Shown piece by piece: positions 38,396-58,810 of a stretch of 64,000 bases of DNA (its first letter is position 1; every line of letters starts with the position of its first letter). The stretch is taken from contig JAZQET010000002.1 in NCBI GenBank assembly GCA_045539135.1, positions 593-64,592 of the forward strand. Reading direction: 5' to 3'. A program made the translations under genes and the position numbers. The stretch is from Eubacteriales bacterium (GTDB taxonomy: Bacteria; Bacillota; Clostridia; Oscillospirales; QAKW01). The notes beneath the pieces were generated by a model. It did not search any database, was not told the origin of the DNA, and saw only the letters and a list, made by a program, of their open reading frames with translations.

Positions 38396-39111
38396 TGCGC
38401 GGGCGCATCCATTCCTTTGAATCCATGGCCTGTGCCGACGGTCCGGGCGTTCGCTTCGCGGTGTTCTTTCAGGGATGCCCTCTGCGGTGCGCCTATTGCC
38501 ATAACCCCGATACATGGGAGGGCGCAGGCGGCAGCGACTACACCGTCGAAGAGATTCTGCAAAAAGCCTTGCCTTATCGCCCTTATTTCGGTAAAAAGGG
38601 CGGTATTACCGTAAGCGGAGGCGAGCCCCTGCTCCAAGGAGAATTCCTTGCAGAACTTATGAAACAGGCAAAAGAGGCCGATCTGCATACGGTTTTGGAC
38701 ACCTCCGCTTCGGCAGGAGAAGCCCATTGGGCAAAGGTGCTTGCTTATACCGACCTTGCCTTGGTGGATGTGAAGTTTACCACAGAGGAGCTTTATCGCG
38801 CCCATACGGGCGGCTCTCTTCAAAAGGTGCTCTCCTTTATGAAGGCGGCAGAAAACGCAGGCGTGCCCCTTTGGATCCGCCATGTGGTGGTTCCCAACCT
38901 CACCGATAAAGATCTTCCCCAACTGCTGGAACTTCTGGAACCTTTTTCCAATATTCAGCGGCTGGAGCTGCTCCCCTTCCGTAAGATCTGCTTGCAGAAA
39001 TATCGGCAGTTGAATCTGCCCTTTCCCGCAGAACAGTACCCCGAATGCTCCCAAGAGCTTCTTGCTTCTTTGCAAAAACAAATTCCCCAAAAATATCTTT
39101 ATATTTCTTGA
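38395..39111 (+). CDS. pflA: Pyruvate formate-lyase activating enzyme
   Basis: GCPLRCAYCHNPD radical SAM cluster and GGITVSGGEPLLQ. The ATG overlaps the pflB stop (GTGATG). Confidence 0.9.
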   Translation: MRGRIHSFESMACADGPGVRFAVFFQGCPLRCAYCHNPDTWEGAGGSDYTVEEILQKALPYRPYFGKKGGITVSGGEPLLQGEFLAELMKQAKEADLHTVLDTSASAGEAHWAKVLAYTDLALVDVKFTTEELYRAHTGGSLQKVLSFMKAAENAGVPLWIRHVVVPNLTDKDLPQLLELLEPFSNIQRLELLPFRKICLQKYRQLNLPFPAEQYPECSQELLASLQKQIPQKYLYIS

Positions 39112-56692: not shown

Positions 56693-56734
56693 AAAAAAGT
56701 ATAGCAGTCGGCCGGCCACGTTCGGCCGACTGCT
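56693..56734 (-). terminator. Intrinsic terminator immediately after putative major subunit A
   Basis: 12-bp GC-rich stem agcagtcggccg/cggccgactgct, followed on the minus strand by atactttttt. Confidence 0.75.
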
Positions 56735-56780: not shown

Positions 56781-57530
56781 TTAGTCGATCTGAGTGATGG
56801 TAGCGGTGATGGTCAGAGCAACGGTTGCAGCGCCACTATTGTCATCGGGATTAGCAGCAGCATTACCCAAAGCGGTATCCTTTGCGTCGTTAGCAGCGAT
56901 TTCGTCTGCATTTGCACCAACTTCAAAGGGCCATTCCCAAGAAACCTGAACGTCATTGTTTACAGCAGACAGGTCCTGATTGGTGTGATAACGAGCAGCC
57001 TTTGCAACGATAGCAGCCTCAACAGCCTCTTCAAACTCAGTTGCAGAAGCATAAGTCGCACCGTCGAAAACTTCAGCAGGAGTTGCACCCTCACCATCAT
57101 CAATAGTGATTACCAAGGGGCAATAGTATGCACCCTCAACAGTCCATTTTTGCAGATCCAGATCAGCAACATAGGTAACCTGAGTATCTACTTCAGGAGT
57201 ACCAGTAACATTCAAAGCGGCCAAAGAACCCTTGGTGCCGGGAGCAACGATGTTGGTATTATCAGCTTTAGCCTGAACAGTAATAGTATCTACATCTTCA
57301 TCAACAACATAAGCAGTAGCAGCGTTGCCGGATACCTTATCTTGATAAGAATCACCAAACATAACGCCGGTAGCTTCGATGGTAACACCCCATTCAGCAA
57401 CGCGAGCGCTGTCGGTAGCAGCAGGGCCTTTGGTCACATACTTAGCGAAAGTTCCGCTGATCATGCAGGTGGACAAAAGGGTCAGAACGAGAACAACACA
57501 AGCGGCTCTCATAATTACGTTTTTCTTCAT
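56781..57530 (-). CDS. Secreted protein with a TasA/camelysin-like signal-peptide end; putative major fibre subunit A
   Basis: N-terminus MKKNVIMRAACVVLVLTLLSTCMISGTFAKYVT..DSARVAEWGV (compare camelysin GGTFAYFSD). IVAPGTKGS block, WEWPFE, C-terminal QID. Strong AAGGAG RBS and its own terminator. Confidence 0.7.
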   Translation of the reverse strand: MKKNVIMRAACVVLVLTLLSTCMISGTFAKYVTKGPAATDSARVAEWGVTIEATGVMFGDSYQDKVSGNAATAYVVDEDVDTITVQAKADNTNIVAPGTKGSLAALNVTGTPEVDTQVTYVADLDLQKWTVEGAYYCPLVITIDDGEGATPAEVFDGATYASATEFEEAVEAAIVAKAARYHTNQDLSAVNNDVQVSWEWPFEVGANADEIAANDAKDTALGNAAANPDDNSGAATVALTITATITQID

Positions 57531-57723
57531 AGTGAAAAACTCCTTTCATTTTATGCGTGCATTTTGCCCTGCACGCGGGAGCAATTTTTTGCGCGAAATC
57601 ATCGCGCCCGATAAGATCCCATCACGGGGGAAAACTAAACCGGGCATCTCGCCCATCCGCGGAGACACCGCGGTTTATATTCATCCCCGGCGTGGCTCCG
57701 TGGGATCAATACCTTGATTTGTT

Positions 57724-57898
57724 GAGTAGAGCAAAAGCAATTTGAGCCTGTTTTGATCGGCACATTTCCGCTCGCTCTACGTTAAAATGCTTGTGAATAC
57801 ACAAAGTATTCACTGCGCTTTATGCCTTGATCGAGCAAAAATCTGCTCGATCAAAATCCACTTACAAGAGACAGGCACAAATTGCTCTTGCTCTACTC
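57724..57898. repeat. 28-bp imperfect inverted repeat bracketing a 119-bp segment in the sipW-to-subunit-A spacer
   Basis: gagtagagcaaaagcaatttgagcctgt (57724-57751) against acaggcacaaattgctcttgctctactc (57871-57898), 26 of 28 complementary. The interior holds the hairpins gtgaatac acaaa gtattcac and ttgatcgagca aaaat ctgctcgatcaa. Confidence 0.8.
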
Positions 57899-57937
57899 GG
57901 AGCGTGATTATTTATGCTCGCTCTACGATCATTGAGT

Positions 57938-58609
57938 TCACTCTTCTTTAGAGGACTCTGCGCCCACAGCGGCGGCTTCTTTTTCTGCCTGCGCGGCTTT
58001 CAGGGCTTCCAGCTCCGCCAGAAGAGCATCGGTATCTTGCTTGCTTGCCTTTTCAAAAGCCTTACGGCGGAGAATATCATAGCCAATCAACAGCAACAAG
58101 GGAACCACCACGCAAACGATCAAACCGTGGGTGGTTTGCATAAACATGGCAACGCTGCCCATTGCAGGGATCCGCATTTGATAAACGCCGATCAAATTCT
58201 CGGCAGGAACCGGCATTTCATCGGGAGCATTATTGGCATCACCTTGAGTGATGAATGCAAGCGCACCCTCCACCTCGGTGATCTCCATCACTCTATGGGT
58301 AACCACCGCATCGGTCTTACTGGCGGGGTCATAGAAGGTGATCACATCTTTAACTGCCACATCATCGGCATCTATGCTCTTGGTGATGATCAGGTCGCCG
58401 CTCTTGATCTGGGGATACATAGAATCGGTCAACACGATCATGGGCGCATAGCCGTTAATGGAAGGAACGCTGTCGGGATTTACATAGCTCTTCACAATAA
58501 GAGTTACATTCATCGCCAGCATAGGGATCAAAATCACACAAAGGATGATGCCCACAACGGTCCATACCTTATGCATGGCAGAGGTCTTTTTCTTTTGTTT
58601 TACATCCAT
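57938..58609 (-). CDS. Signal peptidase I, ER/archaeal type (SipW-like), copy 1
   Basis: ATG 58609 follows GGAGAG. Ser box VLTDSMYP, His box VVTHRV, and GDANNAPD. A C-terminal TM plus an Ala/Glu-rich tail ending SSKEE. Confidence 0.85.
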   Translation of the reverse strand: MDVKQKKKTSAMHKVWTVVGIILCVILIPMLAMNVTLIVKSYVNPDSVPSINGYAPMIVLTDSMYPQIKSGDLIITKSIDADDVAVKDVITFYDPASKTDAVVTHRVMEITEVEGALAFITQGDANNAPDEMPVPAENLIGVYQMRIPAMGSVAMFMQTTHGLIVCVVVPLLLLIGYDILRRKAFEKASKQDTDALLAELEALKAAQAEKEAAAVGAESSKEE

Positions 58610-58810
58610 CTTCTTCTCTCCTACGAAAACTTTTTTGCCGATAAAGGGAACATTCTCCTTATAAACTAAGGAGAATGAAAAAGGGTACCCTTTTTCGCGC
58701 AAAGACTTTAATACATAATAATGTTAACATATTGTTTTTATTTTTGCAAGGGGACTTGTGATATTTTCCAAAACATTTTGTAAGTGTTCACTAACATTTG
58801 ATAATTTTCA

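Follow-up and report, generated by a model that had tools for sequence, protein, structure and literature searches.

Organization of the spacer between sipW and the subunit gene

Within the 64,000-nt stretch of DNA analysed here (the window), a spacer of 407 nt (57531–57937) separates the gene of a SipW-type signal peptidase from that of a fibre subunit, subunit A. The host genome is a metagenome-assembled genome (MAG) of 1.79 Mb in 105 contigs, 89% complete, and its nearest public relatives are MAGs from gut samples labelled Eubacteriales or Acutalibacteraceae. An initial annotation had singled out the spacer for an inverted repeat that brackets a 119-bp segment and for a series of stem-loops, and had proposed either an invertible promoter (inverton) or a structured regulatory RNA. 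Our analysis favours a spacer composed of two unrelated things, a palindromic repeat at 57724–57898 and an RNA domain at 57608–57716, with a joint probability of about 0.68 for this explanation as a whole. The flanking genes are as first named, i.e., a SipW-type peptidase (TIGR02228) on one side and a 249-aa secreted subunit on the other, and sipW, the spacer RNA and the subunit A gene are all encoded on the minus strand:

57938..58702, minus strand: gene for a SipW-type signal peptidase I (TIGR02228, E value 4.9e-31; NF046067 SipW, E value 1.9e-29)
57724..57898, minus strand: MITE-like repeat unit, 175 bp from arm to arm, most likely a species-specific insertion (absent from the spacers of relatives; folding)
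57608..57716, minus strand: predicted structured leader RNA with a four-way junction (covariance model R1, 36.2 bits, E value 6e-6, full length)
56781..57530, minus strand: gene for fibre subunit A, 249 aa, with a signal peptide and a C-terminal TQID (translation; 394 relatives in public genomes)
56693..56734, minus strand: terminator after subunit A, with a 12-bp stem (56723–56734 / 56703–56714), the loop AACGUGGC (56715–56722) and then a U-run (sequence)

The start of sipW is probably the ATG that yields MDVKQKK... (open reading frame, ORF, 57938..58702). An exact-protein look-up of subunit A for further strains returned no record.

The bracketed segment as a dispersed repeat

The inverted repeat was confirmed at 57724–57751 and 57871–57898, its 28-nt arms being complementary at 26 of 28 positions (93%) with 119 nt between them, and so were the two perfect hairpins inside it (57827–57854 and 57793–57813). 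One arm mismatch is, as had been pointed out, A-C on the plus strand and hence U-G in the minus-strand RNA; the other is A-A on the plus strand and U-U on the minus strand. A search of the window turned up no second copy of the 28-nt inverted repeat (matches in shuffles, 0 of 100), and neither did a search of the 1.79-Mb genome; a metagenome scan for the 28-nt arms gave 0 contigs. Folded as RNA, the 175-bp unit reaches -96 kcal/mol (z = -10.5 against shuffles) and forms a near-perfect hairpin of about 85 bp, behind which no U-run was seen on inspection of the sequence. The parts of the unit and an adjoining segment are the following:

57724..57751, no strand assigned: terminal inverted repeat arm 1, homologous to the right end of the repeat family
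57751..57856, minus strand: conserved core of the repeat family, 106 nt (nhmmer E value 8e-27, full length)
57793..57813, no strand assigned: central 8-bp hairpin GTGAATAC-ACAAA-GTATTCAC, whose stem covaries among family copies
57827..57854, no strand assigned: perfect 11-bp hairpin TTGATCGAGCA/TGCTCGATCAA, arms 57827–57837 / 57844–57854 (repeat search)
57871..57898, no strand assigned: terminal inverted repeat arm 2, 26/28 complementary to arm 1
57910..57927, plus strand: ATTTATGCTCGCTCTACG, a partial copy (16/18) of the repeat-internal segment 57764–57781, 12 nt outside the left arm (repeat search and genome-wide search)

The direct repeat of 12 nt described earlier does exist at 57770–57781, but its second copy lies at 57916–57927, one base off the position first given; it is part of an 18-nt match, 16/18 identical, between 57764–57781 and 57910–57927. 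The outer segment (57910–57927) may represent what is left of a second copy, a preference for certain targets or a binding motif. There are four occurrences of the heptamer GTAGAGC, one in each arm, one in the outer segment and one in the internal match of that segment. The hexamers TTGATC and TCAAAAT, taken initially as promoter-like, are likewise present, but they are the two arms of one perfect hairpin and were not called in the promoter scan.

When 57400–58100 was compared by blastn with 60 relatives, the end of sipW and the leader were matched at 86–89% identity in three members of the same genus (G010, G016 and G022), with about 30 nt between them as opposed to about 220 nt here. The alignment shows that the extra DNA corresponds exactly to the arm-to-arm unit 57724–57898. 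Deleting this unit gives ...GCTCC/AACAAATCAAGGTATT, which matches ...GCTCC/GAAATAAACCTTGGTATT of the relatives, i.e., a precise empty site. The sipW gene, the leader and the subunit gene are also close together in a fourth member of the genus (G015) and in a further species (L185). Of the other members of the genus, four have the locus (G010, G015, G016 and G022), and in all four the spacer lacks the repeat unit; its insertion between the stop of sipW and the leader of the subunit is most likely confined to this species.

The core of the unit is repeated throughout the genome. Eleven solid copies were detected by blastn and by an nhmmer profile of the 106-nt core, the window copy being full length (E value 8e-27) and the ten others having E values of 3e-19 or below; core identity between the window copy and these ten is 74–82% (blastn). 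All eleven copies are intergenic, with mixed orientation to the neighbouring genes. Many sites in relatives from the same genus, family and order also match the inner part of the unit; a single genome often has several of them, and contig ends are a frequent location. Other MAGs of Oscillospiraceae and Ruminococcus contain more than 100 near-identical cores. A search of the species-representative genome collection for one exact 26-mer of the central hairpin gave 115 stretches, with dozens per genome in two Ruminococcus MAGs. In the high-copy Ruminococcus subfamily, the unit measures 176 nt and is bounded by terminal inverted repeats of 22 nt; its central core is as in the window while the arms differ. 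In other copies the outer ends, which correspond in position to the window arms, form imperfect inverted repeats, and the orientation of the core relative to the asymmetric outer parts is constant in all copies of the family. Across genera, the central hairpin and the inner inverted repeat keep their pairing through compensatory changes. Thus, 57724–57898 is most likely a non-coding, palindromic dispersed repeat resembling a miniature inverted-repeat transposable element (MITE), and the inverted repeat is most likely the terminal structure of the repeat itself instead of the recombination site of a phase switch.

Matches to about 77 nt of the core lie at the very ends of many contigs in relatives (G005, G017, G031 and G034), which suggests that identical copies break assemblies at the word length of the assembler; the family may be much more numerous than draft MAGs show. 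On contig C61, a copy of the repeat, about 100 nt past a cobalamin riboswitch aptamer (38727–38918, locus L044 28–219; 49.5 bits, E value 3e-10), separates this aptamer from the gene downstream of it. No Rfam family matches the window repeat or ten copies of the repeat. No published description of the family was found, the literature search having brought up unrelated microbiome papers, which were uninformative.

The repeat is an ordinary kind of element. Like MITEs and other palindromic repeats (such as Correia of Neisseria, RUP and BOX of pneumococcus, and REP/BIME), it is a short (about 175 bp), non-coding and intergenic sequence that has inverted repeats at its termini and folds as one long hairpin; a genome has many copies of it, and close relatives differ in whether a copy is there. 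It differs in that its core is 70–82% identical across genera with covarying hairpin stems, that no target-site duplication was seen, and that no partner transposase was identified, the search having covered the Y1 family.

A conserved structured RNA in the subunit leader

All of the leader stems listed in the initial annotation (gcgtgca/tgcacgc, gcgcga/tcgcgc, ccgcgg/ccgcgg and gggc/gccc) are present, and the leader folds better as RNA than shuffled sequences do (z = -3.7). The arms of the predicted fold and the adjoining hairpins are as follows:

57685..57704, minus strand: first leader hairpin, stem CCCACGG/CCGGGG, loop AGCCACG at 57691–57697 (hexamer GCCACG at 57691–57696; sequence)
57642..57673, minus strand: inner hairpins H1, CCGCGG-UGUCU-CCGCGG (57657–57673), and H2, GGGC-GAGAU-GCCC (57642–57654; fold and model)
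57610..57630, minus strand: fourth arm CCC...GGG (57618–57630) and the 3' strand of the closing helix P1 (57610–57617), whose 5' strand is 57705–57713 (fold and model)
57555..57607, minus strand: two hairpins between the motif and the ribosome-binding site, GCGCGA/UCGCGC (57591–57607) and GCGUGCA/UGCACGC (57555–57576; fold)

The last two are not part of the motif, and other species have different small hairpins in this place.

Between species, identity amounts to about 95% for the leader 57531–57720 but just 44–50% for the subunit proteins. The subunit proteins of six species were aligned and used to fetch 80 of the 394 related loci, about 45 of which carry the same motif 50–200 nt before the start codon. 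Its consensus is TATTCTTCCCTCGG-AAGCCACG-TTCCGGGGATGATATA..GCCGCGGCATTCTCCGCG..GGGC(variable)GCCCGGYAA..TTTCCCC(loop)GGGGAAGAATA. Because RNAalifold on a plain MAFFT alignment gave just part of the structure, the seed of the covariance model (R1) was annotated by hand with the closing helix P1, the GCCACG-loop hairpin, a small three-way junction (S0/H1/H2) and a short fourth hairpin. R1 gives more than 40 full-length matches, all on the sense strand and just upstream of homologous TasA/BsaA-like subunit genes; a single weak reverse-strand match overlaps a strong sense match. Within the genus, the motif occurs once per genome and solely in the 5 of 25 genomes having the locus. A metagenome scan for the leader core gave two contigs, one other organism, while an 18-mer scan of genome contigs gave mostly chance matches plus one new species (L185). 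In a 21-mer scan of 401 order-level genomes, matches with two mismatches were no commoner than those of a reversed-pattern control, and one match with a single mismatch (L196) is a further real homologue.

Covariation of the stems, the absence of which would have spoken against an RNA, is extensive. In the R1 alignment 91.9% of the cells are paired, against 76.8% after shuffling and 46–60% with the partners slid; there are 158 compensatory cells (45 ± 6 in shuffles), 24 of 30 pairs change on both sides, and the covariation score is 0.381 versus 0.163 and is reached by 0 of 500 shuffles, although all these figures come from a model-fitted alignment and lean towards structure. The covarying pairs include 8/8 of P1 and 6/6 of the first hairpin. 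As an independent check, 33 distinct stems surround the same first-hairpin loop in 46 species, and the contiguous stems amount to 277 bp when sense-strand G-U pairs are admitted, 218 with antisense G-U pairs and 181 with Watson-Crick pairs alone. On this comparative evidence, 57608–57716 is a predicted, probably ancient structured RNA, conserved in more than 40 species of gut Clostridia and specific to SipW-dependent fibre subunit genes.

The earlier suggestion of a structured RNA thus holds as regards a conserved four-way-junction leader with covariation, but not as regards a cyclic-di-GMP riboswitch or any other Rfam family. A scan with the covariance models of Rfam 15, including c-di-GMP-I/II, found nothing in 57531–57937 at an E value of 10 or below; nothing was found in the leaders of ten typical homologous loci at 1 or below. 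Like the c-di-GMP riboswitches (GEMM-I/II) that precede clostridial pilus and adhesin genes, it is a structured leader before a surface-fibre gene, but its architecture is different and no Rfam model recognizes it. No account of this leader was found in the literature searched, and both the leader and the match of its loop to the terminator appear to be undescribed so far. The motif is of interest as a widespread and strongly covarying RNA structure that Rfam lacks and that goes with a single class of extracellular fibre genes, in gut Clostridia that are abundant but uncultured.

In the window leader, within 57631–57655 (minus strand), H2 is followed by GGUUUAGUUUU, and a scan flags it as terminator-like. 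The U-rich tail after H2 is complementary to the conserved upstream UAUAAACC; other clades have GGYAA in this place. The leader itself was also considered as an inverton and rejected, all reverse-strand matches of the pattern being due to chance (L229, L248) or to the terminator loop.

Position of the leader in the transcript

At no fewer than 21 of 42 loci, a SipW ORF stops at a distance of -5 to +30 nt relative to the motif, and since the stop abuts the motif there is no room for a promoter upstream of it. In C. perfringens, sipW-bsaA is a single mRNA transcribed from the sipW promoter, with a terminator after bsaA and some read-through (Obana et al. 2020, PMC7395162). Based on the position of the SipW stop and on this precedent, the motif is probably an intercistronic RNA domain of the sipW-subunit transcript. 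Read-through from sipW, named in the initial annotation as an outcome that would speak against its proposal, probably does occur, yet is compatible with an RNA element. By description, the C. perfringens operon has the same arrangement of a SipW peptidase gene, a major matrix-fibre subunit, a terminator and downstream read-through; it differs in that the text available for PMC7395162 mentions neither a structured intercistronic element nor complementarity of loops.

Complementarity between the leader and terminator loops

The terminator after subunit A reads AGCAGUCGGCCG-AACGUGGC-CGGCCGACUGCU plus a U-run, and its loop (CGUGGC) is complementary to the loop GCCACG of the first leader hairpin (57691–57696). 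It is the sole hairpin in the genome with a stem of at least 8 bp and that loop. Terminator loops also came up as reverse-strand matches of the leader downstream of the subunit genes in L211, L240, L264 and L277. The stems of the leader and terminator hairpins are unrelated. Complementarity of at least 6 nt between the terminator loop and the loop of a leader hairpin was found in 50 of 76 loci, as compared with 15 of 76 when the loops were reversed. Across species there are seven paired loop states and two G-U intermediates, several of these classes being assigned by reading and the strict automatic count being smaller (leader:terminator):

GCCACG:CGUGGC, most loci
GCCACA:UGUGGC, seven loci of several clades
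GCCACU:AGUGGC, L258
GCCGCA:UGCGGC, L251
GGCACA:UGUGCC, L221
GACACA:UGUGUC, L229 and L248
GGUAUA:UAUAUU, L249
GCCACG:UGUGGC, six loci, a G-U intermediate
GGCACA:UGUGUC, four loci, a G-U intermediate

No A-C combination was seen across the loci compared. The occurrence of G-U without A-C favours pairing of the sense-strand RNA over a shared site in double-stranded DNA. One clade (L229, L248, L218, L219, L223, L238, L221 and L249) has near-identical terminator stems (AUACGAGGGYG...), and in it GGCACA:UGUGCC, GGCACA:UGUGUC and GACACA:UGUGUC represent a stepwise compensatory path via G-U. We infer that the loops at the 5' and 3' ends of the subunit mRNA pair with each other.

Long-range pairing between a leader and a 3' untranslated region (UTR) is known from the highly expressed, monocistronic hbs mRNA of B. 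subtilis, where a 14-bp pairing of the 5' and 3' UTRs modulates cleavage by RNase Y in the structured 5' UTR (Braun, Durand and Condon 2017, PMC5737220). As presented in the text available for that article, the hbs duplex of 14 bp was shown experimentally in one species; the pairing predicted here is a 6-nt match between loops, from a leader hairpin to the terminator hairpin itself, and covaries in dozens of species. Communication between the 5' and 3' ends is a known property of bacterial mRNA; a kissing of leader and terminator hairpins that is conserved throughout a gene family, as predicted here, is a new form of it.

Proposed role of the RNA element

In the proposed mechanism, transcription would enter from sipW, so that sipW and the subunit gene would be co-transcribed. 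The closing helix P1 would enclose the GCCACG-loop hairpin, the two arms of the inner three-way junction and the short fourth hairpin, and this junction domain would form the structured 5' end of the subunit message, possibly after processing just upstream of P1. The GCCACG loop of the leader would then kiss the CGUGGC loop of the terminator and tie together both ends of the major-subunit mRNA. This pairing would most likely shield the mRNA from ribonucleases, or alternatively set the read-through into the minor-subunit genes. The repeat would have landed 8–11 nt upstream of P1 without disrupting the RNA domain, and would be tolerated for that reason.

We tentatively propose, at a little short of even odds, that SipW-dependent fibre genes employ a dedicated RNA system in which the four-way junction kisses the subunit terminator, closing a nuclease-resistant message or tuning read-through, and thereby sets the ratio of the major subunit to the peptidase and minor subunits. 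If confirmed, it would explain how the major subunit is made far in excess of the co-transcribed peptidase, and it would provide a compact, natural message-stabilising module for Gram-positive hosts. The covarying leader and terminator loops also make end-to-end communication in mRNA directly testable in dozens of species as opposed to one model gene.

Alternative explanations

The earlier reading of the bracketed segment as an inverton, with a recombinase flipping 57752–57870 between the 28-nt arms and so gating subunit A, was not supported and we consider it highly improbable. The arm length and segment size do fall within the known range and the element does precede a surface-fibre gene, as in the polysaccharide promoters of B. 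fragilis and flgB/cwpV of C. difficile, where inverted repeats of 20–30 bp bracket 100–200 bp upstream of a surface gene. The genome moreover encodes two tyrosine recombinases, best matched by the XerD and XerC models, and one Xer-like tyrosine recombinase flips several switches in Clostridioides difficile. However, the segment is not kept at the orthologous loci, being absent from 4/4, and belongs to an 11-copy intergenic family in which the orientation of the core is fixed relative to the asymmetric outer parts. No dedicated invertase was found beyond the XerC/XerD-like proteins, and the genome search gave no serine recombinase of the Resolvase family, an absence that is unproven in a genome that is merely 89% complete. 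A promoter consensus scan of both strands of 57724–57898 called no promoter, although such a scan cannot exclude one, and the subunit already has a conserved leader that is probably transcribed from sipW. A function of the repeat copies as RNase III sites, transcript insulators or stabilisers, with the window copy now uncoupling sipW from subunit expression, appears unlikely. It would be consistent with the covariation of the central hairpin and inner inverted repeat across genera at the order level, with the many copies in relatives that precede a ribosome-binding site by 10–30 nt and are oriented alike, and with the near-perfect hairpin of about 85 bp that the window copy would form as RNA. 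Yet the copies in this genome are in mixed orientation to their neighbours, the many contig-end copies point to a recent spread of identical copies, the hairpin is devoid of a U-run, and four relatives do without the repeat. Calls of invertons made from sequence alone, on inverted repeats upstream of surface genes, will catch repeats such as 57724–57898, and comparison of orthologous loci together with a count of copies in the genome is a cheap way to separate the two.

As regards the leader, the conserved block might be a DNA element, i.e., a promoter with the -10-like box GATGAATATAAA and an operator, with the hexamers as inverted binding sites of one regulator. GCCACG and an ATATA box are nearly invariant, L264 contains the palindrome GCCACGTGGC, a terminator-like hairpin abuts the motif in L271, and the bases flanking the hexamers do not covary significantly. 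We nonetheless judge it quite unlikely: the arms around GCCACG vary and covary around a fixed centre, the opposite of what a protein operator would show, covariation extends to helices that span about 100 nt, the stems need G-U pairs of the sense strand, and loop mismatches are G-U and never A-C. Further, the SipW stop abutting the motif leaves no space for an upstream promoter and fits an intercistronic RNA; the -35 position is not conserved, and assignment of the block by eye to sigma-A, H, D, 54 or ECF promoters gave no consistent -35 element. The junction could also be a riboswitch or protein-binding aptamer controlling the subunit, the terminator-loop match being secondary. A multi-stem junction closed by P1, invariant unpaired nucleotides (GCCACG and UGAAUAUAAA), alternative pairings among four mutually complementary segments, and the terminator-like hairpin and U-run inside the window's own copy of the leader are features expected of such an element. 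However, after P1 most members have small GNRA-type hairpins with no U-run and no recognizable expression platform, the distribution is confined to one gene family, and no Rfam aptamer matches, which makes it a decidedly unlikely explanation.

Apart from the leaning of the model-fitted alignment and the assignment of loop classes by reading, several observations weigh against a mobile repeat next to a loop-paired leader. The flanks of the repeat (...CGCTCC / AACAAA...) have no direct repeat in common, so that a target-site duplication is not apparent, and a search that covered the Y1 family gave no transposase with a link to the repeat. In view of the covariation of its central hairpin across genera, the repeat family may have a function of its own. 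About one third of the 80 loci are without a match between the leader and terminator loops, L163 has a G-A mismatch between them, and covariation of the bases flanking the loop hexamers is not significant (p about 0.09 and 0.10). The main oddity with respect to simple co-transcription is found in L271 (about 255–285), where just 3 nt lie between the terminator-like hairpin AAAAATCCGCGAAGCGGATTTTTT and the leader motif downstream of it; this hairpin fits a promoter internal to the motif, or regulated read-through, better.

Additional observations

The sole IS200-like Y1 transposase gene of the genome (156 aa; contig C44:7204–7674, minus strand) adjoins a gene for a Fur-family regulator. A link of the repeat to a Y1/RAYT transposase through its GTAG-containing ends was rejected, the ends of this IS200-like gene being unrelated; an arm-like 22-mer near it proved to be a chance match inside the Fur-family gene. 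A second small repeated hairpin, TTGCCT/TCGCCT-GCCACGC-AGGCGA, occurs in seven copies in the genome (C2:211, C12:3693, C36:1723, C39:9859 and 9963, C57:10740, and C101:8644); one of them has a copy of the MITE-like repeat at a distance of about 150 nt.

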